A DNA stretch of 64,000 nucleotides, taken from assembly GCA_004022145.1 (NCBI GenBank), contig RCNU01000007.1. One strand, 5' to 3'. This document shows, piece after piece, positions 1-51,261 of this stretch. Both the position numbers and the translations under genes were made by a program. The DNA is from Paecilomyces variotii. Taxonomy: Eukaryota. The first letter of the stretch is position 1. The number at the start of each line of letters is the position of its first letter. The notes under the pieces are model-generated. The model saw only the letters and a list, made by a program, of their open reading frames with translations, did no database searches and was not told the origin of the DNA.

Positions 1-1200
1 TCTTTATTATATAGTGTAATATATAGAGATCTTATTACTTTAAGATTATTTATTCTAGCCTTATTTCTAAGTCTACCCCTAATAGAGTATAATTAGTAAA
101 GTTTTACTTATATAGTATTAAATTGCTTTATAATTTATTTATTTTTTATACTTAATTATATTTTATAGCTTAAGGTCCTATATAATATCTTATATTATTC
201 TCCCTTATTAATGCCTTTCTTATATTATTACTACTTAAAGGTTCCTTATAGATAATATATCTTAAACTTAGTCTATTCTTTAGTTCTAATATTAAATAAT
301 ACTTATTTATTTACTAGAAGCTTTTATTTATATAGAGTAATATTATATTGCCTATTAAGAATATTAAATAAGATATTAAATAGTTTATTAACTTTTAAAT
401 ATTATAGTTTATATATATTTTTTTTATATACTTCTTTCTCTTCCTATTTAAGCTTTCTTCTACTATATTAGCTATAATACTTTATTATCTATATCTCTAA
501 TAAATATATTAGTATTTTTATATAAATAGTTAACTATCTTCTATTATGCCTTTTTTATAATATATAAGATTTACTTAACTTATCTCTAAATTGCCTTTTT
601 ATAATTTAAAGATATAGCTTATCTTCTAATAAAATACTATTAAATATTAGATTAAGATCTTCTCCCTTTTTAGAAATATAAGACTATTAGAGAAGTCTAT
701 ATATAAAAGTAATAGTTAGTAAAATTAAGATTAAGAAATATTAGACTTACTTTTTTAGCTTTATCTTTAAATTTTATATCTTATTTTTAATATTAATATT
801 TATTCTTATTTAATAGATTTTAGGCCCTAATAAATACCTTTAGTTAGCCTTTTATATTTTTACCTAATAACTTTTATATTTAAGGAATAACTCTAATATA
901 TACTATATCTCTTCTTATTTCTATTATTTCTTAATTGCTTAATAATAATAATATAGATAATTAGATTAAATAGATAATATCTATATTCTGTGTTTAAATC
1001 TATTAATAATTACTTACTTATTATTATTATAGTTAGAATTATAATAAATTAATATATTACTTTTATTACTGCTTATTTTAGGGTCTTTAATAAAGAAGTT
1101 ATTAGTATTAAAGTTAATATAATCTAAATCCTCTATAGTTATAATAATCTTATCTTAATCTTATTATCTAGAAGCTAAGAGTAATTATAAATATAATAAA

Positions 1201-2150
1201 GATTAAATCTCTTAGCCTGGCTAATATAACTCTAAGTATTAAATATTTTTACTTAGCTAATATAACTCTAAGCATTAGATATCTTTACCTAGCTAATATA
1301 ACTTTAAGTATTAAATATTTTTACCTAGCTAATATAACTCTAAGTATTAGATATCTTAGCTTAGCTAACTTAACTTTAAGTATAATAAGAGTTAAATCTC
1401 TTAGCCTAGCTAATATAACTCTAAGTATTAAATATTTTTACTTAGCCGATATAACTCTAAGCATTAAATATCTTAGCTTAGCTAACTTAACTCTAAGTAT
1501 AATAAAAGTTAGATCTCTTAGCCTAGTTAATATAACTCTAAGTATTAAATATCTTTACTTAGCCGATATAATTTTAAGTATTAAATATTTTAGCCTAGCC
1601 GACCTAACTCTAAGTATAATAAGAGTTAAATTTCTTAGCCTAGCTAATATAATTCTAAGTATTAAATATCTTTATTTAACTAATATAACTTTAAGCATTA
1701 GATATTTTAGCCTAGCTAATATAACTCTAAGCATTAAATATCTTTACCTGGCTAATATAACTCTAAGCATTAAATATTTTTATCTAGCTAATATAACTTT
1801 AAGCATTAGATTTCTTAGCCTAGTTAATATAACTTTAAATATTAAATATCTTTACTTAGCTAATATAACTCTAAGTATTAAATATCTTTACTTAGCTAAT
1901 ATAACTTTAAGTATTAGATCTCTTAGCTTAACTAATATAACTCTAAGTATAATAAGGATTAAATCTCCTAGCCTAGCTAATATAACTTTAAGTATTAAAT
2001 ATTCTTACTTAGCTAATATAACTCTAAGCATTAAATATCCTTATTTAGCTGATATAACTCTAAGTATTAAATATTTTAGCTTAGCTAACTTAACTCTAAG
2101 TATAATAAAAGTTAGATTTTACTTAGCCGACCTAACTGCAAGTATAAAGA
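1201..2150. repeat. Tandem array of 36-bp and 45-bp units (probably coding)
   Basis: Recurring aaatatctttacttagctaatataactctaagtatt and a 45-bp variant ending in taagtataataagagtt; both lengths are multiples of 3. Confidence 0.9.
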
Positions 2151-2659
2151 AGATTAAATATTCTGATTAGATTTATTAAAATAAGAGCTAATAGAATATA
2201 AAGAGATTAGAATTTCTTTAGAATATATTAGTTAATTTATTAGATTAGTTCTATTATTAGTTTATACTAGGAGAGAGCTAAAATTTTAATAGATAACCTC
2301 TTACTAGGCAATAATTAATCTTTATAATTATAAGAAATACTAGCTTATATATTATTTATCTTAAATATTAATTAAGCTTTATTAAAAGCCTTATTCTAAA
2401 CTAGTTTTATTTAAAAAGATTACTTTTATTAATCTCTAGTAAAAAGGTCTTTTATTTAATTTAAATTGCTATTATAATTAATTAATATTTTAAATAAAAT
2501 AATTATATCTATATTAGGGAATTTAGACTTTAAGATTATAAGTTTTATATTAGTAGGCCTTTTATTAGAGATATTATTAGTATATATATTTTTATAATCT
2601 AAAGGTTATACTAGTAATTATTAAATAAGGCTATTTTAATAGCTATTATTAGAAGAGAT

Positions 2660-3235
2660 CTATAATTTACTCTTATAAGGTAATTAGCTATCTTAATATA
2701 ATTTAATAATAGAAGAAATAGATAAAAGATTATATTAAATAAATTAGTTATAATTTAATAGTAGTAGTAACTCTTAAATAAAACTTATCTAATAATTATT
2801 AATAGATAGTATTTATATATTACTTATATAGGGCGATTTAGTATTTTAAAGTAACTTAATTATATAAGAAATTAATAGAAGATTAGATTAAATAGCTTAA
2901 CTATAATTTAATTGCGCTAATAATACTAGGAGAAAATAGCTTTAACTAGTAGTATTATAAGAGGTTTAAATACTATTCTTATTAAGCAATTTCTTATTTT
3001 AAATTAATTCGATTATTTAAGAAATTAATAAAAGATTATATTAATTAAACTGGTTATAATTTAATAGTATTAATAATTCTTAAATATAATTACTTTAATA
3101 GTTGCTATTAAAAGATATCTGCCTATTATTTATATAGGCCAATTTATTATATTAAAATAGCCTAGTTATAGAAGAAATAGATAAAGGACTAAATTAAATA
3201 AGCTAGTTGCAACTTAATAGCAATATAGGTCTTAA
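2660..3235. repeat. Degenerate 153-bp (51-codon) repeat, four units
   Basis: Motif gaaatWRatRRaRgaYtaNattaa recurs at 2715, 2868, 3021 and 3174, exactly 153 bp apart. Also present in copy 3 at ~23580-24155. Confidence 0.75.
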
Positions 3236-4980
3236 ATCTAAATATATATTCTTATTTAATTATTCTATAGATAAGACCTTTTTTATCTATTTTAAAGTTT
3301 AGAATATATATCTTTCCTTTAACTATAAATATACTAGAATATTCTCTTAGATTAGTAATAGGCTTATTCTATAAAAATATTTATTTTAAGTATATCTTTA
3401 TACTCCTATAATATCTAGAAGTATCCGATTATTTATAAATATATTATATACTTAAATAATCTATTAGCTATATAAGAGGGCTATAATTAATAGTAATATA
3501 TATTTCTCTATTTATATTAGTATATATAATACTAAAGTTATTTTTACCTTTTCTTTTTTAGATTAATTTTAAGATTATATTATATTACTTATATTCTAGA
3601 TATTTAAGGTCTAAGTAAGATTTAATAATATATTATATAGTAGCTTTAACTAAGATAGCTAAATATATACTTATAAGGCCTATACCTTTAATAATTCTTT
3701 AATAAAAAATATTCCTCTTTTAATAATAATACTAGCAGTAAGGACTATTAAACTAGTATAAGATAATATTAGCTAAGCTAAAACAGAATTAGAGTTAATA
3801 GCTATATTAAATAAGCTGCGGAGTATTTTATTCTATATTTCTCTATTAGAATTTTTATTAATAAAAGTTTAATCCTTCTGCTAGCAATACTTAAGTAAGA
3901 ATATATAGTATATTATAATCTAATATTCTAATAACCTGCAGATAAACCTAGAATTATTAACCTTAGCTTATTATAAACTCTCTTAGTAACCTACTAATAA
4001 TATAAATCCTATACCCGATATAAAACCCTAATTATAATAATCTTTACTAAGAGAACTTAATCTAGTAGTATTATATAGATAGGTAGGTTAAAGGCCTAAA
4101 TATTATAGAAAATTATTAGTGTAAATATAAAGATTAATAATAAGTTAACTAGGCTATAGAAGATAGCTAAGGGAAATTATTAAATAGGATAAAATTGTTA
4201 GAATTAAACCCATAATAGACTACAGATAAAAAAAAATATTTAATAGACTAAGGATTATTACTACTATAAAGGACCTTCCTCTTTTTATAAACTATTATAT
4301 CCTAAATAGTCTAGAATATCTTTTTAAAGAGAACTCTTTAGTAATAGCATTAGTAATAGCTCTAATAAAGATATAGAGACCTAGGCTTTAAAATTAATTA
4401 TAAAGAGGTATAGTAATCTCTTAGTATTATCTTAACTAGCTATCTTATTTTTTAAATACTACTCTCCTATTTATCCTATAATTCTTTAATATTAAAAATT
4501 TAATATAGTATCTTATAGGGGATATAGATAATCTATAAAATATAAGAATAAGAATAAATAGAATAAGGCTTAAAGAAAAAAATATAGATTAAAATATTAG
4601 CGGTAATAATAAGAGTAAGAATATAACTAAAATTAGTTCTTTATATTACTATTAGTACTATTTACCTATATCTGCTTTAAATCTTATATATTTATATAGG
4701 ATATATAATAGAATTTTAATAACTCTCCCCTATTAATTTATACTAATAATAATATCTTTAGTAATCTTAGCAGAGCGCTATAGAATATATCTTTACTTTC
4801 TAAATATATAGAATATAGAGAAGGAGATAATACTTAGAATTTTAGGCTATTTAATTTTAACAGTAATTAAGAGAATAAATATAATAATCTTAGCGCTAAT
4901 AATAATAATATAGATAATAGCTATAATATACTTATATAGATATTAGATAATAATATATTAATAATAGTTAATAATTAATA

Positions 4981-7900
4981 GAATTTATCTTATAAGTTTC
5001 TAGATAAGCTAAATATAGTAAATATTAAATAAGGGATATTAATATTAATATAGTAATAAATAAGCTATTACCTAGCTTAATAGATATTTTTAAAGCTAAG
5101 GAAGAAGTCTTTAAAAATAATAGCTATTATATACTTATAAAATAGTTAATAGAATAACTTATATAATATTATAGCTGTTTATCTTATATATAAATACTAT
5201 CTATATTTAAAGATAGTAATAGTAGCCTAATATTACTTTTATAAGTTATATAGTTAATATTATATAATATTCTTTCTTAAGAAAATATTTAAAAATATTT
5301 AAAAAGCTATAATTAAAATATTATCCTTCCCTTATTTTAATAATAGTAGCTTTTTAGCAGAATCTAGATTATATTTATTAGCAATTGCTAATTGCCTGCA
5401 GATACTATATTAAGCAGTAAGCTTATTAAGGATCTTTCTCTATATTATTAAAATCGTCTACCTCTATATATTAACCTAGAATAAAATATAATAATGCCTA
5501 AAGAACTATTTACTGTCTCTTTTAATATTAATAATATTATTAAATTTGCAAATAATTTAGCTATAGCCTATTAAGGATTTTATTAGATAATAGTTAAGTT
5601 ATCTATTAGTAGTCTAAAATAGTTACTTTATCTTAACCTAATTCTAGTAACCTTTTATAACCTAAAGACTAGTACCTTTTATTATATATATAGTTTAATC
5701 TATTAGATCTTATACCTCCCTATAGGCCGATTAAATAGGTTTCTAAATATAGAACTATTTATTATTTTCCTTAACCTTTATACTCTAAATTATAATAATT
5801 AAATTATTTTAGATAGTGAATATAGAATCTAAATAGATAAAATATTTATACTAGCTCTTTATAAAGCTTGCCTGGAATTAATTATCTAATACTTACCTGC
5901 TAGCGCAGAATATACTTAACTTTAAGGTATAATATACTTAGCAGAAGGATATTATTAAGAAACCTAATATTTATATATTTAATTATTATACTCTGCTCTT
6001 TAAAATAATAAGCTATTTAGCTTATAATAGTATATTCTTGCTAGAATCTATAAAAGATCCCTAATTATATTTAAGGGGCTAAAGTTATTATTAATAGCTA
6101 AGAATTTAAAGATATATATATAAAATAATACTTAGACTAAAGCACTTAGTAGATTCTTTAAATTATAAATATATATAGTTAATTAATAGTACTTAGAAAA
6201 GGAATATTATAATATTAGGAAAGAAGTTATTATAACTAGTTAAAACTATAATTTTGCTATTAATAATATAAAGATAGTAAAGTATTTATTTATTCTATTA
6301 TAGCGCTGTTATTATTAAAAAAGCTTCTTTATTTAGCTCTAAGAGGTTTTAAATAAGCTTATCTTATATTAAGAAGGTAACCGCATAGAATTAAACTATA
6401 ATATAATACCTTTTTTTAATATCTAAGAGTAGTATCTAAGGCTATAAATTATAATCTATATTTAATAGCAACTATTATCTAAGAATAATAATAATTATAA
6501 TAAAGATAATTAGTATATAACTACTAATAATAATAATTAGAATAAGACTATTAATAATAATAATAGTTATTATAAAGAATCTAAATTAAATAGTCCTAAT
6601 TCTAATTTTTTAAGGCAATTATTACTAGAAGATAATACCTCTATAATAGCTAAAATATTAGGAAATAATAAAAATAAGAATATAAGGTATAAATTACCCT
6701 AGAGGTTAAAGTTTTATTATAAAATACTCTTGCGAAATATAAAAAGTTTAATAATTAAACCCTATCTCTATTTTATCTTATAAGCTAATAGGCTATATTA
6801 TTATTAGTTTTATAATTCCTTTAAAAAGGTCTTTACAGTAAATAATTAGTATTTATTTGCTAATTGCATACTAGATATACTAGCTCTAGATTATAGTTTA
6901 ATCTATATATAAGAATATATTAGCTATGCAATTAATTATAATCCTATAGCTCTTTTTTAAGTATATTATTATTTTAAAAAGTATTATTATATAATAATTT
7001 AATATTGCTAGAAGTACTTATATAGCACTTAAGAGGAGTTTTATATTACTAGGACCTTATTTTATATTATTAATTATAAAATGCAAGTAATTAATATAGC
7101 CCAGGAATATTTAAAGCTTCTATTACTTATATTAATATTATCTAATTTATTATTATTAAATTATCTATTTCTATTTTTTACCTATTATATAGTTAATATC
7201 CTAGGTTTATATTAATAGAATGTAAATTATCTCTATTTAAGATTTAAGTTAGTTTATAATTTATAGCTCTATATATTAATATATTAAGAATATAGCTATA
7301 TAATAATAATATTTCTTTTATATCTTCTTTATATATTTAGGGGTTAAAGGAATTATATCTTCTAGTATAATAGTCTTTAGTTAAATTATTATATCTAACC
7401 TCTAAGAGAAAGTATAGACTAAGAATAGGTCTATAAGGGCTTAAGTATAGGGGAGATACTTAAATGCTATAGTTTTATATAGTTTCTAGATAAGTTTAAT
7501 TAAATAGCTATAATATTTTAACTTCTCTATTAAATAGTTATAATTTCTTTTAATATACTTTTAATAATATTAGTATATTATTAGTTTTATAAAGAAGTAA
7601 AAGGAGTATAATTAGATTATATTATAGTCTATAATATCTTTACCTGTATATTTAAGGTCCGGGCAGATTTTATATACTTAGCCTTACTTCTAGATTTATT
7701 AGTAGATATATATCTTTAGGTATTTAAGAAAGATGCCTTTAAGACAATAAGAAATATTATTAAGTGCTAAAAAATACTAGATAATAAAAAAATAAAAGAG
7801 GCTTATAATAGTAATATTCTATTAACTCTATATAAATTATATTTATTATTTAAAGATATTAATCTATTAGTATTTATATATATAGTAACTAACTTAAAGT

Positions 7901-8350
7901 ATAGAATCTATAATATTAAGGTTTTATTTAATTTCTTTTAAGGATAGAAAGCTAATAAAGATAATTAAGAATTAAAATAAGAGTACTAGAGTAAAAAACT
8001 ATATTATACCCTTTATAAATAATATAATATTATAATTATAGAGATCTATAGGCTTAGTTAAGCGCAGTAATAGCGGGCAATATTTAAATACTATTTTATT
8101 TATTTATATTAGGTATTGCTGTTTCTTAATAGTTAAATATTCTAGCCTAAATACTAGTTTAAAAAATTAATAACATAGATAACTACTTATAGAGATTTAT
8201 CTAGCTATTATAGGCATCGGAAGAATAGATAACTTAGAGAAAGAGCTAGGAATATTAAAGCTATAATTAATAATCTATTTTTTCTAATAATTATATCTTA
8301 TAATATGCTTTATCTTCTAATAACTAGATAAATACCTAGTAAGTATCTAA
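4981..8350 (+). pseudogene. RIP-inactivated large ORF (~1100 codons) of an uncharacterised fungal family; candidate rolling-circle initiator
   Basis: One frame gives coherent de-RIP readings: SFDIDSIIGFANDLAVARQG (5518), IPHLPVGRL, QHLPASAEH, AKNLK, YYDIGKE (6205), an acidic tract, LLRDIGSLT, QFYNSSKEVF (6805), SYGTREEFR (~7018-7044), GFMWFPDKFDW, AFRKDAF. Stops are TAA/TAG at CAA/CAG/CGA/TGG-compatible positions. Ends approximate; an upstream exon near 4750-4920 is possible. Confidence 0.7.
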
Positions 8351-11300
8351 TAGAACTACAGGTATAATTACTTCCTTTACTAATTAACCTTAATGCCTAT
8401 TTTAATACTATTAGCAATTCTACTCCTATTAGTCTTATCTCTTTTCCTTTTATTAGTATATTAGATAGGCTAATTATAAAATAGCTCTTTAAAAATATTT
8501 TTCCTTAATAATAGTTTAGGTTATTTATAAGAAAGAATTACTTAAGAAATTAAGATAAAATTTATATAGAAGTAGGATAGCTTACTAATAAATTACTTAA
8601 GATTATAAATAAGTAAAGAGCAGTTATATAAAAGAATATTTATATATTCTATTCTTATATAAATAAAGTTTTATTTTTAAAAAAATAGAAATAATTAGCT
8701 AATAATAATACTGTAAATTCTTCTATTATAGATATAGATCTTAAAGAAAATTTTAACCTAGAAAGCCTTAGGTAAAGATTAGCTTATATAATAATAAAGC
8801 AATAATATTATTATATAAGGTTTTATATAGTTAAGACTATAATAGACTTATATAATAAAAACCTTAATAAGCTAATAGAGTATTAAAAGAGTTTTAAATA
8901 AATTAAATAATCTAGAGATAAGTATAAGCTATATAAGGTATATAAGATATATAAGATAAAGAAATAAAGAGGTAAAGAGCTAAAATAGCAATTTAATAAA
9001 TTATTAAAACAGATTTGCAATAGCTAGAATAGATAGAATAAAATAGTTAATAAGGATTTTATAATATTAGAAAGTTCTTGTAAAAAGAAGTCTTTACTTA
9101 CTTTTAAATTTTTAGGGAATTTATTATCTATAAAGAGCTTAAAAATTAAGTATTAGTTAATATACTTACTAAAAGATATAGATAAAAATATTTATCTTAC
9201 TATTAGACCCTAATTAAATAGCTTTATATAATCTAGATATAATCCTATTAAAGATACCTTCTTAGAGATATAACTAAGTAGAAAGAGTAGTTATTTCTTA
9301 TATATATATAATACTATTTCTTATTATTTCTTAGTAATATATTAATATTTTAATATTCTATCTCTATTACTTCTATTATTATATAAGATATTACTTAATT
9401 AAAAAAAGGACTAGGTAATAAGAAGATTATAAGAAGAAATATTAATTCTAATAAGATATACTAGAACTATAAATACATTATATAGTATAAGTTAAAAACT
9501 TTTCTAAGCAGCCTATAATTAGAAGAAATAAATTATCCTATAAAAAAAGAGTATCTAACTAGAATATTATCTATTAAACTAGATTTTTCTACTATATAAA
9601 TAAAGTAGTATTTTTAGAGCTTAGATAGTATTTAGGGAGCTATTTTACTTAGAGCGCTTTCTATTTTCTTATTAATAATATCTATATATTCTAGCAGTAT
9701 TTTATATAGTTAAGGGAAGTAAGTTCTAGAGTAATATTCTAAGACTATATTAAAAGTAGTAAAGAGCTTAATAATATCTAAGATATATTAATTAGCTTTT
9801 TCCCAGATTAGCTTATTATAAATTATTCCTATATAGGTTATAAGTTTTTATATATAGAATAGGGGTTTAAAAGGCGCGCTATAATAGGCTATAGACTAGG
9901 AGAAGAGAAATTACTAAATTATATATAAACTTTACTAAACTATATTTATCCTTACTTAAGACTTATAATATTATTTTTATTATAGCAGGTAATAGTAATT
10001 ATAATAGAAGAAGCTATTTTAAAACTAGAGATAGCCGCTTAATTTAACAGTTATATAAAAAAAAAAGTTTATTTTAATATTTAAGTCCTATATAGGAATT
10101 AATATTATATTACTTAAGTTCTTAAGGTCTTTAAACTAAGAGGAGGTATAAATATAATAGGGCCAGATAAAGAGAATAAAGAGGATAAAGAGAATAAAGA
10201 GAATAAAAAAGAGAGATTAATAAGGGAAATATAGTTGCTAGTAATTTACTAATAAAATAATACTTTAATACTTCCTTAATCTTAAAGAATTAGTTCTTTT
10301 ATCTTAATTAGGCAAATAAAAGCGCAGGATAAGCCTGCTTAATTAAATATATATATGCTTAATTATAAAGCGCTTATTAAATATTTTAATATTATTAAGA
10401 TTATCTAGCAGTTAAATTAAAGTAAGCTAGCAGATAATATTAAGCTTAATTAATAAATAATAAAGTAGATCCCAACTCTAGATATATTAAGCCTCTATAT
10501 ATTAATTAGGTTTTTATATAGATACTTAAATACTTACCTAATAGATATTAAAAAGCTTATTAACTTAAATAATATAGCTATAACTAGTAGATTACTAGAT
10601 ATATATTTATTTAAGTAGGTATATAGTCTAATAGTAAAAGAAATAAATAAGAAACTAAATATTTAATCTATATAAGAAGCTTAATAGGTAAGAAGCAAAA
10701 TAAGATAATTTAATAGACTTTTATTCCTATATAGTTTAATAGTTTTAAAAAGAATATAATAAGAAAGAATCTTTAAAAGGAATATTTTATTTAATAGAGC
10801 TATTCCCGGCTATAGGTCTATATATAGGCTTAAAGACTTCTACTAATTTATTACTATTAAAGTATTTTATAATACTTTCTTCTTCCTTATCTAAAGATAA
10901 AGGCAGTCCTTAAAACTAGCTAAGTATATTTATTATATATAAAATATTACAATTAATAAAGTAAGATAGCTATAATAATTCTAACTCTAAGAAAGAGCTA
11001 ATAGAATATTTAGGAGTACTAAGATAGTTAGGCGCTAAAGAAACTAAATATAATATATCTCTTAAAGGATATTTATCTCTATTAATAAGTCCTTTATAAA
11101 CTATAAGAGAGAATATTAAACCCCTTAGTTAATAGCTATAAACTAAGTAAATATAATATAAATATTTATATCTCTAGTTATTATACTTAATTATATTAGT
11201 TTAATATATCTATTTAGCTAATAAGAAAAGCTAGAGATTAATAAGTCTAAGATATTTTAATGTTTATATTTATAGGAGGTATATATAACTATACTAGCTT

Positions 11301-12090
11301 AGTATATATCTTAAGCTAATAAGAGGACCTAAATAATAATAGGTTTAAAAAGTTCTAATTTATAATTTTATCTTAATTTAATAATCTAACTATAATAAAC
11401 TAGACTTTAATCTCTATACTATAAAGGAAAAAATAAGAGAAATAATATTATTATATAGGGGCGAGGAAATAATACTCTTATATAAAGATAAATAGGAAAG
11501 AATAAGATATTAGATTATATAGCTCTTATAGGGGGTAAGCTATAAATCTATTATATTCTGCTATTATATCCTCTATATAAACTAGATAATAGCTATAATA
11601 AGATATTACCTATATTAATCTATATAAAATTAATAAAGATAAGAAAAGAACTATAGATTAGTTTAGTTAGATATTTAGCTTAGCTTAAAACAGCTAAGGC
11701 ATTTAGATAAAGTTAAAGAATATAAGTAGCTAGTAGATTTTAGTATTAATTAATTCTTTAAATAATTTAATAATTATTACCTTTTTATATATTTTCTCAG
11801 AATCTTTAATTCTATAGTCCTAGATCTTTATAAAAGGTTAGCAGCTTATAGAGAGGGGAAAAGGTAGAGGAATAGGAGGCCTGAGAAGAACTATATAAAT
11901 ATATATATTTTATATAGACCTTTAAAAAATATTTAAAGAATATTAAATAGTAAAGTAATTATAGTTTAACCTTATTAATTTTATAATTTATAAGATTCTA
12001 TCTATTTTATTAATAAATATATATTCTTTTTAGTATTTAGATATTAAAATATTAATTAATTTTTATTAATATTTTTATTATTTATATTTA

Positions 12091-38541: not shown

Positions 38542-41500
38542 TTATATAGCTTTTACCCAGGAGTTAATACTGTTAATAATATTTGCCCTAATTCCCCTAT
38601 TTCTGCTAATAACTCTAGAAGAGTTTATTAAATATATTATTATTAGTTATAGGCTAGAATAGTATAATTACTATCGCCTAGTATATAAATATATTAATAA
38701 AGCTAAGACTGCTGCAAATAAGATAAATTATTAAGCTAAGATATATTTTTAAGAGCTTTAGTAAGAATTCGCCGCTATTTAATAGAGATTTAAATAAGAA
38801 ATTACTAAACTTAAGGCTATTTAGTAATATTAAAAAATTTAGCTCTAAGAAAAAGAATAGCAGTATATTTAAGCTATTTTTAAGAGAGATTAGGCCTGCT
38901 ATATAGTTATACTTACTATAAATATATCTCTATTTATATTTAAATCTAAGCCTAATATTAAGAAATCTGCAGCTGCTTTAGTAAAAGTATTTAAGACACC
39001 TATTATTATACCTTCTTCCGCCCCTAAATTTTTAGAGAGATTCTTTAATTTAGATAAGTTTAAAGATAATTAAAAGGACCTTCAGCATTTTATAGCCTAG
39101 ATCTAAGAGAAGATAATAATTAACTAAAACTAATTCTTAACTTTTTAGAGCTATATAGCCTATATAATTAACTGTTTAAAAGATATACCTTATGCCTAAA
39201 TATTGCTATATATTAAAGATAGGACTTATACTCTTAATAACTACTAAAAGATTCTAAATATCTTAAAGTGTATATTTAATAACTCTAATTATATAAATAA
39301 TATATATAGTAAATTATTTAATCTCTATTAGACTAATAAAGAATTTAGAATTTTCTTTACTAAGTTCTAGTATCTAACGCTAGAAGAGGAAATATTTAAA
39401 GAAATATTATCTACCTTATTTAAGTAAGCTATTAGTTAAGAATTCTGAGGAATATTATTATATAATTAGCCCCTAAGTTATAAATATTACTAGTTTATTA
39501 AATTTTTATAAGATCTTAAGAACTATTACTGCTAGTATATTATAAACCAGCCCCCTATTATAAAGACTTATATTACTATTTTAAAATCTGTTTAGTATAT
39601 CTAGTCTTCTTTATTTACTTTAAGTCCTACTCTAGCTGTAAGATATAATAATTAGCCCTAGAGAAGCCCTATATAGAAGAGTAAATTAGCCCTAGTATAA
39701 TTATATAACCTAATAGACCTAAATATTTCTAGACGCCTAAGCAGAAAAGAATATAGCCTATTATATTATAAAACTAGCGCTTGCTTTTAATATAGCTCCT
39801 TAAAATATTATATTAAAAATTACCTATACTTAGATAACTGCTAGAAGATCTAGACTATAGCTATATATAAATCCTATCCCTAGACTCTCCAGGCAATCTA
39901 GTTCTTAGACTTGCGTAGTCTATCCCCTAGCTAATTTTTAGTAAAAGGAATAAGCCTAGAGTAAGTCGCGGCCAGGCTTAAGAATTATATATTATTTAAA
40001 TCTCCACCGCCGCTGTTTATAGAATTAATTTTAAAGAATATCTGTAATAATTAAAATTAATAATACTACCTATAATATTAGAAAAGAAGAAGAAAATCTA
40101 CCTGCTAACTTATGCCCTGCTTAATATTAGAGCTAAAGGATAAGAATTTATAGACTAAGAATAGGCTAAAGACTAGAAGTTAAAGCTTATCCCCCTAAAG
40201 AGCCTAATTATCCTGTATATATTTAATAGAAGAGAACTAGAGAATAGGAAGATTATATATTATATCTAGATAGATATAAGAATTAAAGATTACTTTAAAA
40301 AAGATACTAAGTTCTATATTATCTAATTAGTATATTATCCTATTATTTTAAGACTCCCCTAATTAAAGTATTATAACTTATACTTATAATTTATTGCCTA
40401 TAATATTGCTTTTAATAGTAATTATTATTAAAAGAATTATAATATACCCTTAAAGCTAACTAAAATACTTACCTTATATAATATTCCCTTAAAGACTTTA
40501 TCTTAATACTTGCTCCTAAGATTTAGAAGACTAGAAGAAAGAAATATAGCCTTTATTTCTCTAGCCGCTTATTCTGCCTATACTTAAAGAAATATTTAAA
40601 TATTTATAATTACCCTAGAGGACCTAGATACTATTTTAAGAATTAAATAAGTCTAAGAAAAAGATCTTACTTATCTGCTGCCTAAAAAGTTTAAAAATTA
40701 TATTAATATCTTTTCTCCTAAAGAGATTAAGCGCCTGCTATTATATTATTCTTATAATTATAATATTAAGTTATTAAAGAGGAAGTTGCTCCCCTTTAAA
40801 CCCCTATATATTATATCTTAAAATAAATTAAAGGTTCTAAAGGAATAGATTAAAAAAAACCTAAGAAAGAAATTTATTTACTTAAGCTTATTACCCGCTA
40901 TATCCCTAATTCTATTTATTAAGAAGCCTAATAAAAAGATATAGATCTATATAGATTACTAAGCTCTAAATATAATAACTATTAAAGATTAATATTCTTT
41001 GCCCTTAATTAAGAAGACCCTAAATAACTTAAAAGGAATAAAGTATTTTATAAAGATTAATATTATTTCTATATTTAATAACCTTTATATTAAGAAAGGA
41101 TAAGAATACCTAACTGCCTTCTATACCTAACTTAGCCTATTTAAATTACTAATAATACTATTTAGTTTAATAGGAGTACTAGCAATATTCTAATAGTTTA
41201 TTAATAATATCCTATAAGATTATCTTAATATCTTTTATATTATATATCTTAATAATATCTTAATATATAGTATAACCCGTTCTAAATATATTTAATATAT
41301 CTATATTATCTTATAAAAGCTATATAAAATAGGCCTATATATAAAGATCTAAAAATATAAGTTTATTATTCTTAAGACTAAGTTCTTAAGTATTATTATT
41401 AGCTAAGACTATATTAAGATAGATCTAGATAAGATAAAAATAATTGCTAAATAGAAGACCCCAATCTATATAATTAATATATAAGCCTTTATTAAATTTA

Positions 41501-43974
41501 GTAACTTTTATTATTAGTTTATTTATAACTTTTCTAAAATAATTGCACTACTTATAAGCTTAACCTAGAAGAGAATTCCCTTTAATTAGATACTCGCCTA
41601 TTAGTTTAGTTTTAAAGCTTTAAAAAATATATTTATTTAAGCCCTAATCTTAAAGCTATTTAATTAAACCCGCGAGGTTATAATTAAAACTAACTTATTT
41701 AATTATATATTAGCTAGAGTTATATCCCAGTATAATAATAAAGGAATCCTGCATTTTATTATATTTTTCTTAAAGAAGCTCTTTGCTATAAAGTGTAATT
41801 ATAAGATTTATAATAAAGAACTGCTAATAATTATCCGCTGCTTTAAAGAATAGCGCCTTAAGCTTAAAGGCATATTATTACTAATTAAAGTTATTACAAA
41901 CTATTATAATCTAGAATATTTTATATTAATTAAGCTGCTAAACTAGTAATAGGCCTATTAATTTAAATTCTTATCTTAATTTAACTTCTAAATTATATAT
42001 TAACTTAAAAAATAAGAAGTAAAGCCTAATATTTTAACTAGGAGGTTAAAAGATCTCTTTAAGAAGAGAGATAAATAGCTATAATATTAGAGCCAGATAG
42101 TCTTAAAAAAGAAGAACCTTAACCTATAGATTTAGAGATCTCTAAAATTAGAAGCTATTATTAGGAGTTAAATAGTAAAATATATTCGCTTTACTAATTT
42201 AATAGCTTAAGAGATTAGAAATCTTATTAAATCTATAGAAATATCTACTTAATCTGCTTTAAAAAGTTAACTTATTTAGCTTAAAGAACTTATTTAATCT
42301 ACCCTACCGCCTAATTAGTCTGTTAAAATTATTTAACCTGCTAAAGAGATAATTTAATCTATTAAAGAGACTATTTAGCCTATTAAAAAAATAGCTTAGC
42401 TTATTAAATAAGACTAATTAAGTTCCCCCGCTATACCTAATAAATTAAAATATTTACCTAATATTAAAGATCTACTAGATATAGCTTATCTATTTAATAA
42501 CTTAATATAATCTATCCTGTAAGCCTTAGATTATAAAGCTAACTATTACTCTAAGATTATATTAGCTAACTATTAATAAAGAGAAAAATATTTATATTAT
42601 AGAGATTATCTATATATTCCTAATTATAATAAGCTAAGAGCTTGCCTATTATAAGAATACTATAATAAATATATACTTAAATACCCTAGAAAATATAAGC
42701 TTTATAACCTAATCTTATAAGAGTACTATTAGCTAAATATATACTAATATATAAATTGTTAGACCTAGAATTGCTATACCTACTATTATATTATACCTTT
42801 AAATAAAGGCTATTAAAAAGTTTTATATTAGCTTCCTATCCCTAAATGCTTTTAGTAAGATATTTTAATAGATTTTATTACTAGACTTATGCCTTATTAA
42901 GGTTATAATGCTATATTAGTTACTATAGACTAATTTATAAAGATAAGGTATTTTATTCCCTATTAGGCTATCTATAATATTAAAAGAATAGCGCGATTAT
43001 ATATTTACTATATATAGAAGCTTTATAGGCTATTAAAGACTATAATATTTAACTAAGGCCTCTAGTTTATTATTACTTTTTAGAAATACCTAATTTAATA
43101 TTTAAATATTATAAACCTGCTATTTATTGCCTATTATCCTAAGACTAATAGTTAGATTAAAAGGATAAATACTATCCTAAAATAATACCTGCGCGCCTAT
43201 ATTAATTATTTATAAGATAATTAAATTAACTAGCTATCTCTAGCTAAGTTTATATTAAACTCTTACTATTCTAAGATTATTAAAATATTGCTCTTTTTTA
43301 CTAATTATAGATTTTATCTATATATAGGATTTAAGCTTATTTAGCCTATAAACTAGCCCGCTATTAAAAATACTAAAGCCTTTATTAAAAAAATATAAGA
43401 TATTATAGATTATATCTATACCTAGATCTATACTGCTTAAGCCTATTATAAAAAGCAGACTAATTACTGCTAAACCCTAGCTTATTATTATTATATAAGA
43501 TAGTCTATCTAGTTAAATATTTAAAATATCTATACCTAGCGCTTCTAGAAAAAACTTAACTAGAAGAATCTTAGCTTATTCTATATTATTAAGGTTATTA
43601 GCCTATATACCTACTAGCTTAACCTACCTGCCTTAATATATATCTATCCTATATTTAATATTAGCCTGCTTCGCCCTATTATTAAAGACCCTATACTTAG
43701 ATAAAGATAACCTTTACTACCGCCTATTAAAGTTAATAGCTTTAAGAAATAAATTATTAAAGATATCTTAAACTCTTAATAGAAATATTATAGGTATAAA
43801 AGCCTCTAACTATAATATACTGTTAAATAATTAAGTTATAATAATCTAACTAAAGAGCCTATATACTACCTATAGTATACTTAGGAGATTATTACTAACT
43901 TTTATTGCTACTACTTAAATAGGCTAAAGCTAGAGAATAGTCTTAATAGAGCTTAACCCTAAGAAGGGGAGTAT

Positions 43975-44229
43975 TATTATAGTATTAGTATAAGAAATAG
44001 AGATCTACTAGCTAATACTTACATAAGGTATTATATAATCTTGCGAAGATATTTTTAATATATAGCTTAATCTAAATTTAAGCTTTTTAAGCTATATTTT
44101 ATTTACTAAGCCTGCCTGCAATAGCTTATTCTAGTCTAAATTAGCTAGATAGAGATCCTATAGCTAGTCCTAGTATTAACTACCTTATTCTATTTATTTT
44201 AACCCGCTTCCTAAGCCCGCATCTTAATA
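43975..44229 (+). repeat. 3' LTR (255 bp)
   Basis: Direct repeat of 38287-38541, preceded by the polypurine tract. Confidence 0.92.
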
Positions 44230-45387
44230 GAAAGCTCTTATTAATATAGCTCTTTATCTTAATTATAAAAGCACTTTAAGACCTGCAGGTAATTAGCCCC
44301 GGCGCTTTATTAAACTACTTAATTCTCCCTTATTTATTAATAAAAAGGACCCTAAATTTAAAGACTGGCTATTATAGATTAAGAATAAGCTTAAGGTAAA
44401 TACTAATTATTATAGAAGTAAATATCTCTATATTATATATATTTAAAGCTACCTAAATAAAAAAGCTATAATATATATATCTCCTAGATTTTATAAAGAT
44501 TCTAGTTTTTCCTTTTAAATAGCTAATAAGATCTTTAATTATCTTTAAGCTGTTTTTTATAACCTAAACTATTATTAGAATATAAAGCATTATAATAACT
44601 AGACTAAATTAAGTTTTAGATTAATAAATAACTAAGTAATATAAATTTTTAATTACTAAATTTTTAATTAAATAGAAGTTTTAAACTAATATATAGCCTA
44701 AAGGCTCCGGCCCTATATTATCTATTACTAAAATAACTAGTCTAAATATCTTATAATAGTTAACTTTATAGCAGCTATATTAATCTAAGAATCTATAAAT
44801 ATATCTCTAGTAATAGTTAAATGCTAATATAAGTTATAGATTTTCTTTAATTATAGCTTAATATTATAATCTAGCAGTTTACTATTATAAGATTTATTAG
44901 TTAAAAATAATTTAATAGTTAAAAATTTATATAATTTAGTAATTTATTAATCTGAAATTTAGTATCCTATTAAATAAGGCTTAATAAACTTTACTAAAAT
45001 TCTCGCCTAAATATTAACCCTTTATATCTCTACTAAATTAGGTTAGATTTAGATAGAAATTAATTTATTTTATATATCTAATTTAACTCTATAATATATT
45101 AAAAATTTAGCTTAATCTAACTTTATTTTACTAAGATATAAGGGGATAAAGTTTTATTATTAAAAAATCCGAAATAGGAAGCGGTGCTAGCTTATTTTGA
45201 TTTTTCTACTATAGCTTACTAATTGAGGCAAAATTTTTAAACCTTAATAACTTACGCTACAGTGGACTAATCCAAAAAAGGAATATATATTTATAATCCT
45301 TAGAACGAGCTCTATCGATTAGTATATAGAACAATATTAAATTCCTAAAGGGGAAGTTTACTTATATACGTGATTTTACCTTATAGA

Positions 45388-47363
45388 TAAATTTTTAACT
45401 ACTAAATTTCTAATTATTAAATTTTCTATTAATAGTATTATAGCGCTAAATAAGTATTATAATAGCTCTAAGATAAATTAGAGCTATAGGAGAAAATAGT
45501 AGAATAAAACTACTAGTAAAACTATTAATCGCCTATTATATTAAGAAGAGATTAAAAAATAAAGGATTTTAAAGATAAAAGTATTTAGATTTTTACCTTA
45601 AATTTTTTTTCTTTTTTTTCTCTAGCTTAAAGTTCTCTATTATATTACCTTATTAGGTTAGATCTTTAATAAATTTAATTTAATTTACTTAAGTATAATA
45701 TTACTTTAAGCTTATTTTATTTATCTTATTTTATTTCTTAAGCTTTTTATCTAAGTATATTATATTGCTTAAAAAGCCTATCTACCGCTTAATAAAATAC
45801 TAAATCCTTAAATTAAGTTTTTGCTATAGCAAAGCCTATTAATAAATCTAATTATTATTAAGATAACCTTAAAGATAGAGATAAATAGCTTAAATAAGAA
45901 CCTATAAAAGATATTTATTATATCTTATATTACTAGGATAATAGGCTAAAGAATATAATATTAAATAAGTTCTATAAAAAGCTAAAAATAAACCTTATAA
46001 AAATCTAAAGAATTTAATATTCTATTATTAATTTCCTCTAGAATAAAATTTATAAATTAAAGAATATTAAGCACCTAAATAATTATAATATTAAATGTAA
46101 AAATAATAATAATAACCTTACCTGCTAGCTTTACTAGGAAAAATACTATATTAAAGATATTAAATAGCGAGTTATAAAACTTATTTATAATTAAAAAAAA
46201 TATAAAAAGGCTTTTACTAATATAACCCTTTATTTTAATTATAAAAGTATCTTAGAATCTATAGGTAATTAGCCCTAGTACTCTATTAAACTACTTAATC
46301 CTCCCTTATTTATTAATAAAAAGGACCTTAAATTTAAAGACTAGCTATTATAGATTAAGAATAAGCTTAAAATAAATATTAACTATTATAGAAGTAAATA
46401 TCTCTATATTATATATATTTAAAGCTGTCTGGGTAAAAAAGCTATAATATATATATTCCTTAAATTTTATAAAGATTCTAGCCTCCTCTTTTAAACAGCT
46501 AATAAGATCTTTAACTATTTTTAAGCTATTTTTTATAATTTAAATTATTATTAGAATATAAAGCGCTATAATAATTAAATTAGATTAAGTTTTAAATTAA
46601 TAAATAACTAAATAATATAAATTTTTAACTACTAAATTTTTAATTAGATAGAAGTTTTAAACTAATATATAGCCTAAAGGCTTCGGCCCTATATTATCTA
46701 TTATTAAGATAACTAGTTTAAATATTTTATAATAGTTAACTTTATAGTAGCTATATTAATTTAAGAATCTATAGATATATCTTTAGTAATAATTAAATAC
46801 TAATATAAGTTATAGATCTCCTTTAATTATAGCCTAATATTATAATCTAGTAATTTATTATTATAAGATTTATTAGTTAGAAATAATTTAATAATTAAAA
46901 ATTTATATTATTTAGTAATTTATTAATCTGAAATTTAATATCTTATTAAATAAGGCTTAGTAAACCCTACTAAAATTCTCGCCTAAATATTAACCCCCTA
47001 TATCTCTATTAAATTAGGTTAGATTTAGATAAAAATTAATTTATTTTATATATCTAATTTAACTCTATAATATATTAAAAATTTAGCTTAATCTAACTTT
47101 ATTTTACTAAGATATAAAGGGATAAAGTTTTATTATTAAAAAATCCGAAATAAGAAGCGGTATTAGCCTATTTTAATTTTTCTACTATAGCTTATTAATT
47201 AAGGTAAAATCTTTAAACCTTAATAACTTACGCTACAGTGGACCAATCCAAAAAAGGAATATATATTTATAATTCTTAGAACGAGCTTTATCGATTAGTA
47301 TATAGAACAATATTAAATTCCCAAAGGGGAAGTTCACTTATATATATGATTTTGCCTTATAGA
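45388..47363 (-). mobile_element. Large element, copy 4 (terminal ~2.0 kb only)
   Basis: Starts within the last 87-bp repeat unit, then the LTR/gag relic and the terminus ...gccttataga at 47363. Confidence 0.85.
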
Positions 47364-50300
47364 AATAATTAAAAACAATAAGCTCTAATTAGCTTATTTA
47401 AATATTAAATAAGCTCTTAATAAAATACTCTATATCTTACTAATTACTACTATTCTCTTTACTATTATTTATAGCCTCTAATTCTTCTATATATAATATT
47501 ATAATATCTAGAATATTAGAAGAAGAGATTAGAGAAGCAAAAAGAACTGCATAAATAATCTAAGTATATAAACTATAGGTTAGTATAGGAAGAAGCTATA
47601 GAATGCCTATTTATATATTAAGACCTCTAATAGTCTATATTAACCCTCTGTAGGTCCTTAAAACTATTTAGCCTATATTAAAGTCTTAGGTAATTAAACG
47701 GTGCCTTAAATAAGATACTAGAGAGTATTTATACGCAGGAAATAGCTATATAATTTAAATTCTTTATAAACTCTAGATAGGAGAGATTTAATATAGCCTA
47801 GTCTAGTATTATACCCTGGGATTTATATATATTAATAGCATATGCTACTATAATAGGGAACTAAGTCTATTAGTAATTAATATAATTATAAATAAACTCC
47901 TAGTAAGATTAAAGAATAGGGATAATTAAATAGCTATTACTATCTTAATAAAGATATAGCTTCTAATTATTATTAAAGCGGATTAAAAGAGCTAGTAGTA
48001 GATCTTGCTAATAATTATTATCTTAAACCTATATAATATTAAAAAGCATACTAAAGGAGCTATTTACTAACCTTTACTTTACCTAGATATTCTTCTTTAG
48101 TATAATAAAGTTTCAGATTACTTAGTTTTAGATTAATAAATAACTAATTAATATAAATTTCTAATTACTAAATTTCTTATTACTAGATTAAACTAAGTTT
48201 TAAATTAATAAATAATTAACTAATATAAATTTTTAACTACTAAATTTCTAATTATTAAATTTTTAAAGAAAGTAGGAGAAAGCTTATTTAATTAAATCTA
48301 AGAGCTAGGCAAAGCCTATATAGGCTTACTAAATTATATAATTGCTAAGGAGTAAAGTGCTAAAAGAGGTAGCTAAAGAAGGCCTTTAATAATTTCTTAT
48401 TACTAGACTAGACTAAGTTTTAAATTAATAAATAACTAATTAATATAAATTTTTAACTACTAAATTTCTAATTACTAAATTTCTTATTATTAAACTAAAC
48501 TAAGTTTTAGATTAATAAATAACTAACTAATATAAATTTTTAACTACTAAATTTCTAATTATTAAATTTCTTACTATTAGACTAGACTAAGTTTTAAATT
48601 AATAAATAACTAACTAATATAAATTTTCGACTATTAAATTTCTAACTATTAAATTTCTTATTATTAAATTAGACTAAGTTTTAAATTAATAAATAACTAA
48701 CTAATATAAATTTTTAACTACTAAATTTCTAATTATTAAATTTCTTACTATTAAATTAAACTAAGTTTTAAATTAATAAATAACTAATTAATATAAATTT
48801 TCAACTATTAAATTTCTAATTATTAAATTTCTTATTATTAAATTAGACTAAGTTTCAGATTAATAAATAACTAACTAATATAAATTTTCGACTATTAAAT
48901 TTCTAATTACTAAATTTCTTATTACTAGATTAGACTAAGTTTTAGATTAATAAATAACTAACTAATATAAATTTTTAACTACTAAATTTCTTATTACTAG
49001 ACTAGACTAAATTTTAAATTAATAAATAACTAACTAATATAAATTTTCGACTATTAAATTTCCGACTACTAAATTTTTTATTATTAAACTAGACTAAGTT
49101 TTAGATTAATAAATAACTAACTAATATAAATTTTTAACTACTAAATTTCTAACTATTAAATTTCTTATTATTAGACTAGATTAAGTTTTAGATTAATAAA
49201 TAACTGACTAATATAAATTTTTAATTATTAAATTTCCTATTATTAAACTAGACTAAGTTTTAAATTAATAAATAACCGACTAATATAAATTTTTAACTAC
49301 TAAATTTCTAACTACTAAATTTCCTACTAATAATATTATAGCGCTAAATAGATATTATAATAGCTATAAGATAGATTAGAGCTATAGGAGAAAATAGCAG
49401 AATAAAATTACTAATAGAACTATTAACTGCTTATTATATTAAGAAAAGATTAAAAAATAAAGGATTTTAAAGATAAAAGTATTTAAATTTTTACCCTAAA
49501 TTCTTCTTCCTTTTTTTCTCTAGCTTAAAATTCTCTATTATACTGCCTTATTAGGTTAGATCTTTAATAAATTTAATTTAGTTTATTTAAGCGTAATATT
49601 ACTTTAAGCTTATTTTATCTATTTTATTTTATTTCCTAGGCTTCTTATCTAAGTATATTACGCTACTTAAGAAGCTTATCTACTATTTAATAAAATACTA
49701 GACCCCTGAATTAAATCCTTGCTATAGTAAAGCCTATTAATAAATTTAATTACTATTAAAATAACTCTAAAAATAGAGGTAAATAGCCTAAATAAAAACC
49801 TATAAAAGATACTTATTATATCTTATATTACCGGGATAATAGGCTAAAGAATATAATATTAGATAAGTTCTATAAGAAGCTAAAAATAGACCCTATAGAA
49901 ATTTAAAGAATCTAATATTTTATTATTAATTTCCTCTAAAATAAAATTTATAAATTAAAAAATATTAAGCACCTAAATAATTATAATATTAAATATAAAG
50001 ATAATAATAATAATCTTGCCTGCTAGCTTTACTAAGAAAAATATTATACTAAAGATATTAAACAGTAAGTTATAGAACTTATTTATAACTAAAAAAAATA
50101 TAAGAAGGCTTTTATTAATATAGCCCTTTATCTTAATTATAAAAGTATCTTAAGACCTATAGGTAATTAGCCTTAGCGCTTTATTAAACTATTTAACCCT
50201 CCCCTGCTTATTAATAAAAAGGACTTTAAATTTAAAGACTAGCTATTATAGATTAAAAATAAGCTTAAAATAAATACTAACTATTATAGAAGTAAATATC

Positions 50301-51261
50301 TCTATATTATATATATTTAAAGCCGCCTGGGTAAAAAAGCTATAGTATATATATCTTTTAAATTTTATAAAAATTCTAGCCTTCTCTTTTAAATAGCTAA
50401 TAAGATCTTTAATTATCTCTAAGCTATTTTTTATAATTTAAATTATTATTAGAATATAAAGCGCTATAATAACTAGATTAAATTAAGTTTTAGATTAATA
50501 AATAACTAAATAATATAAATTTTTAACTACTAAATTTTTAATTAGATAAAAGTTTTAAATTAATATATAGCCTAAAAGCTCTAGCTTTATATTATCTATT
50601 ACTAAGATAATTAGTCTAAGTATCTTATAATAGTTAACTTTATAGCAGCTATATTAATCTAAGAATCTATAGATATATCTTTAATAACAGTTAAATGCTA
50701 ATATAAGTTATAGATCTTCTTTAATTATAGCCTAATATTATAATCTAATAGTTTACTATTATAAGATTTATTAGTTAAAAATAATTTAATAATTAAAAAT
50801 TTATATTATTTAGTAATTTATTAATCTAAAATTTAATATTCTACTAGATAAGGCTTAGCAAACTTTACTAAAATTCTCGCCTAAATATTAACCCCTTATA
50901 TCTCTACTAAATTAAGTTAGATCCGGATAAAAATTAATTTATTTTATATATTTAATTCGACTCTATAATATATTAAAAATTTAGCTTAATCTAACTTTAT
51001 TTTACTAAGATATAAGAGGATAAAGTTTTATTATTAAAAAATCCGAAATAAGAAGTAGTATTAGCCTATTTTAATTTTTCTACTATAGCTTACTAATCGA
51101 GGCAAAATTTTTAAACCTTAATAACTTACGCTACAGTGGACCAATCTAAAAAAGGAATATATATTTATAATCCTTAGAATAAGCTCTATTAATTAGTATA
51201 TAGAACAATATTAAATTCCTAAAGGGGAAGTTTACTTATATATGTAATTTTACCTTATAGA
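47364..51261 (-). mobile_element. Large element, copy 5 (terminal ~3.9 kb only)
   Basis: Starts at sequence homologous to ~14432 (aataattaaaaacaataagc); includes the 87-bp array and the terminus ...ccttataga at 51261. Confidence 0.85.
48102..49332. repeat. 87-bp tandem array, copy 5 (longest; contains a ~128-bp insertion)
   Basis: Same unit; foreign sequence at 48263-48390. Confidence 0.95.

Follow-up and report, generated by a model that had tools for sequence, protein, structure and literature searches.

Five copies of a giant repeat unit stacked at one common end in Paecilomyces variotii, and the gene family that the unit carries

How does a fungal genome come to hold several copies of one giant repeat unit that start at different points and all stop at the same base? 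This question is raised by a stretch of 64,000 nucleotides from contig RCNU01000007.1 of the Paecilomyces variotii assembly GCA_004022145.1, and this whole stretch is called the window below. A sequence-only reading of this DNA had described five copies in the same orientation with one exact common end and variable starts, and self-BLAST and junction alignments over the 64-kb window confirm that description: five plus-strand copies of one repeat unit lie head-to-tail in a stack. The explanation that we favor, with somewhat less than even confidence, is that polar, terminus-anchored copying of an unclassified mobile unit of at least 19.7 kb built the stack. The unit carries the relic of one recognisable gene, an open reading frame (ORF) that we refer to as ORF-A.

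Five copies with one common end

The last base common to the copies lies at positions 17950, 19696, 45387, 47363 and 51261, where the homology between copies ends, and in 5/5 cases the sequence at the end is ...CCTTATAGA. The last 120 bp before it (17831..17950 in copy 1, plus strand) are the invariant terminus that is repeated at the other four positions. Copy 1 (1..17950) has its left part cut off by the start of the window. Copy 3 (19697-45387) is divided into a left part of 18,590 bp (19697..38286) and a right part of 1158 bp (44230..45387, including the 5-bp duplicated target) by a nested Tf2/Gypsy-type retrotransposon on the plus strand (38287..44229), which was recognized by its Pfam domains and by long terminal repeats (LTRs) at about 38331-38541 and 44019-44229. 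The Gypsy element is flanked by a 5-bp target duplication, GAAGG at 38282-38286 and GAAAG at 44230-44234, and therefore copy 3 was once a contiguous unit, which measures 19,743 bp after removal of the Gypsy element and the target duplication. Copies 1 and 3 are colinear with 86-89% identity; copy 3 starts 1448 bp further left than the part of copy 1 visible in the window, so that copy 1 is without these first ~1.45 kb, and this segment (19697-21144) has no second copy within the window.

The other three copies, also on the plus strand, are short. Copy 2 (17951..19696, 1746 bp) corresponds to 16205-17950 of copy 1, copy 4 (45388..47363, 1976 bp) to 15975-17950 and copy 5 (47364..51261, 3898 bp) to about 14432-17950, so that their start points in copy 1 coordinates are 16205, 15975 and ~14432. 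The joins between copies have a microhomology of 0-1 nt and no filler, and the position of junction 3 is ambiguous by one base. The final A had been assigned to the terminus itself at junctions 1 and 4, and this holds, as the uninterrupted copies have C/T and T at these places. The terminal 9-mer by itself is not significant (9 matches in place of the 3.6 expected, with 2/100 shuffles reaching 9); the significance rests on the five sites being the shared end of alignments of at least 1.1 kb. The five-copy alignment of the last 1158 bp contains 0 gap columns. A sixth copy at 51262-54695, prompted by another CCTTATAGA at 54695, was rejected after alignment gave only low-complexity matches.

Three of the four visible starts fall within the last 3.9 kb of the unit (P = 0.026 under uniform breakpoints in 19.7 kb). 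Two of these three flank the right edge of an internal 87-bp tandem array of about nine units (15188..16022; TRF and self-BLAST), which recurs at ~36590-37555 and ~48120-49338: copy 4 starts 47 bp inside this edge and copy 2 starts 183 bp to the right of it, a coincidence that was noticed post hoc.

The history of the copies can be read from their mutations. The GC content is ~20% across the window, and every segment has a TpA/ApT ratio of 1.35-1.45 and a (CpA+TpG)/(ApC+GpT) ratio of 0.18-0.33, values typical of fungal repeats on which repeat-induced point mutation (RIP) has acted heavily. Over 9999 aligned bp, copies 1 and 3 differ by 1014 transitions, 2 transversions and 1 gap column, and the short copies show the same transition-dominated pattern. 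The ten pairwise distances over the last 1158 bp are 97-122 each, which is a star-like divergence, and only 2 polymorphic columns in this segment are not of the RIP type. Near-pure RIP transitions together with about equal distances imply that the copies started out identical and acquired their mutations in parallel afterwards. Thus, they arose close together in time, in a single burst that preceded the parallel RIP. A consensus of the five copies with RIP reversed has 29% GC and opened no ORF. This need not mean that the template was dead before the array formed, since the CpA sites are near saturation (sites mutated in 0, 1, 2, 3 and 4 of the five copies number 1, 3, 5, 8 and 16).

The same mutations bear on whether the stack exists in the genome at all. 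Repeats are hard to assemble, but an assembler could not invent ~10% of copy-specific transitions. In addition, the 31-mers of 16000-20500, a segment that spans junctions 1 and 2, are recovered to a fraction of 0.71 and 0.65 in two sequencing runs of the same organism from two studies, and one of the runs may be the source of the assembly. Together, the copy-specific transitions and the k-mer support make an artefact unlikely, and we find it hardly credible.

A more serious alternative is nested self-insertion, in which full-length copies would have inserted one into another, the window showing the right halves stacked behind the innermost copy and the left halves lying beyond the left edge. 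Each junction, a complete end followed by an internal point of the next copy, is the exact product of such nesting. Nesting does occur locally, as the Gypsy element in copy 3 with its clean 5-bp duplication and a second Gypsy element interrupted at ~62750 illustrate, and RIP-degraded AT-rich blocks are described as typical insertion sinks in parts of PMC6300479. However, the star-like divergence means that nesting needs four successive self-hits of a 20-kb element before any RIP cycle separated them. The same orientation throughout would have P = 0.0625, the clustering of three of four starts in the last 3.9 kb carries the P value given above, and no left half is visible in 51 kb. We consider nesting to be unlikely, if still deserving of attention.

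Reuse of one end with base precision, uniform orientation, blunt joins and a single burst together speak for a polar process linked to this end, which is what our favored explanation proposes. Synthesis or strand transfer would be tied to the fixed end (...CCTTATAGA), run inward and stop at variable points, and each new, usually short, copy would be placed precisely against the fixed end of a copy already present. The direction of copying is our reconstruction, and the element would either supply or recruit the enzyme. The short copies would then be truncated at the 5' side relative to ORF-A, and the 87-bp array would be the first obstacle for a process starting at the fixed end, a suggestion that was also made post hoc.

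Termini and coding content of the unit

The ends of the unit were examined for the structures that known elements display. The sequence-only reading had reported no poly(A), no telomere repeat and no paired terminal inverted repeat, and none was found beyond chance, even in a two-letter purine/pyrimidine alphabet. The fixed end lacks an A-rich tail: over the final 60 nt, the A fraction is 0.38-0.40, equal to that of T, with no repeat. Telomere repeats of the TTAGGG type and their RIP variants are absent from the window and from the junctions, and the purine/pyrimidine telomere pattern YYRRRR/YYYYRR is not above shuffles in the window and absent at the junctions. A four-unit YYYYRR tract at 55636-55659 was considered as a telomere and rejected, as it reads as a lysine-rich minus-strand relic.

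When the first 200 nt are compared with the last 200 nt for a terminal inverted repeat, the longest match has 9 nt (shuffle mean 8.6), or 14 in purine/pyrimidine code (shuffle mean 14.6). Direct repeats between the two ends of copy 3 are at chance level only, both in nucleotides and in purine/pyrimidine code. LTR-type long terminal direct repeats are not seen, as 19697-21144 occurs once in the window, and no RNA gene was detected in the window with Rfam or by tRNA scanning (0 hits). Folding showed no hairpin at the fixed end or at the start of copy 3 (z -0.36 to +0.25 relative to shuffles). For the 120 nt at 19697-19816 the folding values are z -0.24 and +0.25, to be read with the knowledge that RIP can destroy stems and that 19697 may not be the true end.

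These results bear directly on whether the unit belongs to the Helitron superfamily (Helitron1 or Helitron2/Helentron) when read on the minus strand, either as a non-autonomous member, which would lack RepHel anyway, or with a RepHel gene destroyed by RIP. Its stacking would then result from re-initiation or from insertion at its own 5' end. The minus strand starts with TCTATAAGG at all five termini and hence with the 5'-TC of Helitrons, for which the chance expectation is 1 in 16. Tandem, truncated Helitron arrays are documented, and fungal Helitrons insert next to resident termini, according to parts of PMC5148889; Helitrons are also able to cap chromosome ends, as parts of PMC13085455 describe. 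The defining features of the superfamily, which we took from portions of the same two papers, give a different picture. The CTRR motif is found at 0/4 of the minus-strand 3' ends of copies 2-5 (...AGAA, ...GGAG, ...TTTA and ...TATT), of which three must be truncations under every interpretation and the fourth is possibly truncated as well. The plus-strand base after the terminus is T, C, T, A and C, so that the A|T insertion site of Helitron1 is present in only 2/5 cases. No hairpin was detected, there is no asymmetric terminal inverted repeat, and neither strand showed a Helitron_like_N or PIF1 domain in the six frames of 19697-38290. The one recognisable gene does not encode a RepHel and runs in the opposite direction. 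The Helitron reading fails all the tests applied here except the trivial 5'-TC, and we regard it as very improbable.

More generally, the suggestion of a rolling-circle-type element has survived in part. The geometry fits a polar, terminus-anchored process as had been proposed, but the unit shows no Rep or helicase, CTRR, hairpin, asymmetric terminal inverted repeat or consistent A|T site, and nothing positive speaks for rolling-circle chemistry.

The coding content was searched in the same spirit. Pfam searches of six frames of 19697-38290 (12 translations, with X at stops) matched no family at E<=0.1, a scan of frame +1 of 1-9300 was likewise empty, and the three plus frames of 8785-14501 in copy 1, which has an independent RIP pattern, gave none at E<=1. 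Domains for Helitron_like_N, PIF1, DUF3435, DUF3723 and DDE are all absent from the six frames of the visible unit (19697-38290). Likewise, RVT_1 and Exo_endo_phos, the domains of interest for reverse transcriptase (RT) elements, were not found in the plus frames of copy 3 (E<=0.1) or in 8785-14501 of copy 1 (E<=1). As a control, the equally RIPped nested Gypsy element gave RT_RNaseH_2 (1e-12), RT_RNaseH (7.5e-8), RVT_1 (1.9e-5) and SH3_Tf2-1 (3.2e-5). The control failed to show the Gypsy integrase or protease, so that with four domains recovered and the integrase missed, the method works but its sensitivity on RIPped DNA is partial. The earlier statement that no RepHel or DUF3435 gene can be recognized in the unit stands.

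This outcome also weighs on the idea that we see the right end of a larger conventional element, either a Starship whose DUF3435 captain would lie far to the left or a giant element with terminal inverted repeats and a DDE transposase, and that the stack represents deletion leftovers. The left end of copy 3 is seen once, and the unit could therefore exceed 19.7 kb; furthermore, Starships are known from Paecilomyces, the genus of the best ORF-A match. However, no DUF3435, DUF3723 or DDE domain occurs in the 19.7 kb, there is no terminal inverted repeat, and deletions would need to have begun at the identical base several times. The DUF3435 negative covers the visible 19.7 kb, and the true 5' end may lie outside it. 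We give this idea as little credence as the Helitron one.

Codon periodicity of the RNY type (purine, any base, pyrimidine), which is proof against RIP, gives hints of further gene relics at 9.3-10.8, 12.6-13.2 and 16.2-17.1 kb. The last of these (query 16101-17402) has no homolog in a word-seeded search, a type of search with almost no power for RIPped queries, in which no more than 8-17 exact 5-mers are left per ~1100 aa. A phmmer search of two translated frames against PDB sequences gave nothing below E 0.3. A GC-richer segment at approximately 13270-13420 (= 34900-35050) contains an Ala/Ser/Thr/Ile-rich low-complexity run in frame +3; it adjoins the strong periodicity at 12.6-13.2 kb and may be part of a second gene relic.

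ORF-A and its protein family

The one recognisable gene was found with frame +1 of 5401-9000, the frame with the fewest stops, as a phmmer query against 1.84 billion representative proteins. There were 108 matches at E<=1e-3, 53 at <=1e-10 and 18 at <=1e-30, and the top match (P0014; E 1.1e-182, 36% identity) is an intact hypothetical protein of 1217 aa from Paecilomyces variotii, encoded on a 19,590-bp contig that encodes KAJ9292425.1. The relic in copy 1 (5470..8784, plus strand) gives one frame-preserving alignment to residues 162-1211 of this protein, with 89 stops; tblastn also recovers it as a single high-scoring segment pair (E 3e-111), and the RNY periodicity is in the same phase. The start of the ORF is probably near 4987. 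In copy 3 the relic lies at 26389..29721 (plus strand), where tblastn gives two segment pairs with the same protein, 26389-27150 and 27484-29721. These two relics are the sole matches in the window when 115 family proteins are used in tblastn. Judged by sequence similarity, then, ORF-A is the only recognisable gene of the unit and a RIP-wrecked member of a family of ~1200-aa proteins in Eurotiomycetes. Close relatives occur in Paecilomyces, Aspergillus arachidicola, Blastomyces percursus and Coccidioides posadasii, and all of them are annotated as hypothetical.

No Pfam domain was recognized in the family, and searches of PDB and BFVD gave no structural relative. Among 46 family members, 45 are without any Pfam family; the remaining one (P0021, 1149 aa) has the start of a Gypsy-type RVT_1 domain at its C-terminus (25.4 bits, below the cut-off). 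This fragment is probably chimeric, a gene model running into an adjacent retrotransposon, and it would suggest that this member also sits in repeat-rich DNA. Two conserved domains can be distinguished. In domain A, D141, D143, S144 and H176 (as numbered in P0037) are near-invariant and give a D-x-D-S...H signature, and in domain B 19 columns are invariant across 19 full-length members. AlphaFold models domain A of P0037 with a pLDDT of 84.6 (core above 95) and domain B of P0025 with a mean pLDDT of 77 and a pTM of 0.66. Foldseek searches of PDB gave no match at E<=0.001, the best being E 0.48 for the domain A model and 1.3 for the domain B model, a null result that is weak evidence against a DDE transposase. 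In VIA-wide comparisons, the best Z for the domain A model was 3.4, with 0/48,161 chains at Z>=5, and the only match of an 825-aa model was its C-terminal coiled coil. The best E value was 0.17 against BFVD and, with the family profile as query, 0.13 among PDB sequences. Nothing usable came from the ESM Atlas, and no longer, fused forms of ORF-A were found.

Two functional assignments were considered and rejected. The conserved residues of domain A prompted the idea of a primase-polymerase with a DxD / sxH pattern, which had no support from fold or profile searches. A Crypton-type tyrosine recombinase, raised by the shared host range, had neither the HxxR...Y order among the invariant residues nor a recombinase among the fold matches.

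ORF-A is on the plus strand, which places the fixed end on the 3' side of the gene. Such a position agrees equally well with a 3'-anchored copy truncated at its 5' side and with a rolling circle on the other strand. Moreover, the fact that the unit carries a protein family of this kind makes the earlier proposal of a distinct class more plausible, and the element may indeed belong to a distinct, unclassified class. Within terminus-anchored copying we can separate three chemistries, and each of them is doubtful by itself: a DNA-level process of the rolling-circle type with a nick at the terminus is the least doubtful, a 3'-primed process of the reverse-transcription type is somewhat less likely, and another chemistry involving ORF-A seems improbable.

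Relatives of ORF-A in metagenomes, which were found at 17 loci that are un-RIPped and have 45-60% GC, provide some context. In two unrelated loci there are same-orientation tandem ORF-A paralogs about 4.0-4.3 kb apart (L007: 3-1898 and 3225-6866, 23% identity; L008: 626-2854 and 5065-5481, 50% identity). Another locus, L012, is a chromosome end, in which ORF-A (1126-4191, plus strand) is the last gene and is transcribed toward a terminal (TTAGGG)n tract at 5470-5541 that begins ~1.3 kb downstream of the gene. Upstream of ORF-A, L012 also has a degenerate telomere-like tract at 88-111, as if the segment had been added beyond an older chromosome end. In L002, two inverted, ~49% identical ankyrin-repeat ORFs (3264-4631, minus strand, and 20387-21199, plus strand) bracket ~16 kb that contain an ORF-A homolog and an 852-aa ORF without Pfam family. 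Otherwise, homology among the 17 loci is limited to the coding region. Among 12 neighbouring ORFs that were scanned, two encode ankyrin repeats, one is SNF2-like and nine have no family, and no neighbour is conserved between these loci or in common with the window.

A further alternative is a replication or repair accident, in which break-induced replication, possibly at a chromosome end or a recurrent break, would have run off the fixed end and re-invaded at arbitrary internal points, in one event and with no transposition. One event of this kind fits copies that were identical when made and are equally diverged, and it fits joins with a microhomology of 0-1 nt and the finding of no transposition enzyme in the frames scanned. 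In L012, a relative of ORF-A is the last gene before the telomere with a telomere-like tract upstream, and regions with subtelomeric helicase genes in Fusarium occur in full and truncated forms at chromosome ends (parts of PMC12857005). However, the telomere adjacency is seen in 1/17 loci only and not in the other 16, and the junctions and the rest of the window carry no telomere repeat or purine/pyrimidine footprint of one. To its right, the array is followed by at least 12.7 kb of other repeats, so that a terminal position would be conjectural. Finally, a run-off point that is reused five times would need a hypothetical site-specific break. We therefore judge an accident of this kind to be rather unlikely.

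Polar copying from the fixed end, as proposed above, also draws support from the precedents of tandem truncated Helitrons and telomeric non-LTR elements and from the same-orientation ORF-A tandems in L007 and L008. Several observations weigh against it. Only a single locus is known, and a RIP-tolerant 38-nt pattern of the terminus had 0 matches in a metagenome scan. A single copy shows the left end of the unit (19697), and this copy may be truncated there. In the six frames of 19697-38290 and the plus frames of 8785-14501, no domain turned up that would indicate a polymerase, RT, Rep, helicase, recombinase or transposase, a negative that covers the unit up to its last ~1.15 kb. The link of ORF-A to mobility is circumstantial, and the 17 loci share neither flanks nor a neighbour gene, which would imply that ORF-A could be mere cargo, either an ordinary gene that evolves fast or a subtelomeric one. 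A bolder proposal is that ORF-A is the replication/integration enzyme of a new class of one-ended elements in Eurotiomycetes, which would copy themselves from a fixed terminus and dock at resident termini or chromosome ends. It would explain the stack in the window, the tandem paralogs in L007 and L008 and the telomere-adjacent L012 together, and we consider it a long shot.

The remaining features of the window can be described briefly. To the right of the stack, 51262..60194 (minus strand) is RIP-degraded DNA unrelated to the element, with a strongly negative AT skew, T-rich on the plus strand. It had been taken for a Gypsy element cut at 51262, and this is not supported, as the segment has no similarity to the Gypsy element of the window and neither an RT nor an integrase domain; a DUF4100 match on the minus strand at ~53.6-53.8 kb (E 0.0012) is sub-threshold. 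The segment is probably a minus-strand retroelement relic outside the element. It is followed by two further copies of the family of the nested Gypsy, at 60195-62749 (minus strand) and 62751-64000 (plus strand), with LTR matches at 60195-60405 and 62772-62982; the reverse copy is interrupted at ~62750 by the start of the other. Inside the unit, a 36-nt tandem array with a higher order of 117 nt lies at 1202..2103 and again at ~22334-23064 (TRF and self-BLAST). Its frame +2 is stop-free for ~900 nt, and every other frame there has 30-50 stops. An additional 153-nt array is present at 2609-3220. Copy 3 contains a 446-bp segment at a TAAT-rich site (33119-33564) that is single copy in the window and not present in copy 1; it could be a small post-burst insertion or a deletion in copy 1.

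Comparison with known systems

The closest likenesses are found among Helitrons and telomeric retrotransposons. Tandem truncated Helitrons in plant centromeres, Metarhizium and Fusarium have, like the array described here, a fixed terminus, a variable other end and a head-to-tail arrangement, and they share with it the lack of poly(A) and the placement of the new copy at a resident terminus; they also have no target duplication (as described in parts of PMC5148889). Unlike Helitrons, the array shows no RepHel, CTRR, 3' hairpin, asymmetric terminal inverted repeat or consistent A|T site, and its gene is on the other strand.

Arrays of telomeric or site-specific non-LTR elements such as FoTeR and MoTeR have a fixed 3' end, variable 5' truncation and uniform orientation, and their truncated copies outnumber the full-length ones, all of which resembles the stack. 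However, these elements are 4-7 kb in size with an RT and with telomere repeats at the junctions, at least in the portions of PMC12857005 that describe them; the unit here is at least 19.7 kb, with no RT or telomere repeat detected. In addition, ORF-A is about 9.2 kb away from the fixed end, unlike the situation in telomeric non-LTR elements. Among these elements, HeT-A and TART of Drosophila are also known as telomeric non-LTR retrotransposon arrays. Compared with long interspersed nuclear elements in general, the unit has the fixed 3' end and variable 5' truncation, and the RT and the poly(A) or 3' simple repeat are lacking.

Starships resemble the unit in their size class, their occurrence in the Eurotiales and their Pfam-poor accessory genes, but no DUF3435 captain was found in the visible 19.7 kb. 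The stack itself sets the locus further apart, as Starships are not known to form stacks of end-anchored truncated copies.

One-ended transposition of IS91 and ISCR elements in bacteria also leaves a fixed origin end and a variable other end. It depends on an HUH transposase and usually over-runs the terminator, giving longer copies, and it does not stop early. The fixed and the variable end are thus in common with the array, whereas the copies here are shorter and fungal. IS91 and ISCR are mentioned in PMC5148889. Gene-bearing units that occur in full and truncated forms in tandem at chromosome ends are a further likeness, found in yeast Y' elements and in the telomere-linked helicase (TLH) regions of Fusarium (parts of PMC12857005), although these arrays carry interstitial telomere repeats and a RecQ-type helicase and the array here carries neither. 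The Y' elements of yeast are a case of amplification of a subtelomeric element, and tandem dimers of transposable elements reportedly arise through double insertion.

The possibility of a new machinery is testable: a Paecilomyces variotii strain whose sequence is available carries the best homolog of ORF-A as an intact gene, and transformation, crosses and active RIP are described for this species in parts of PMC6300479. All currently known classes of fungal giant elements are defined by a recognisable enzyme, be it a tyrosine recombinase, RepHel, RT or DDE transposase. Here, a 20-kb unit in which none of these enzymes was detected has been amplified with base-precise polarity, and it carries a large protein family, well conserved in Eurotiomycetes, without a domain or fold match. 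Should ORF-A drive the copying, the chemistry of transposition would be a new one; should it be no more than cargo, RIP would still have preserved at this locus a clean natural trace of polar copying.

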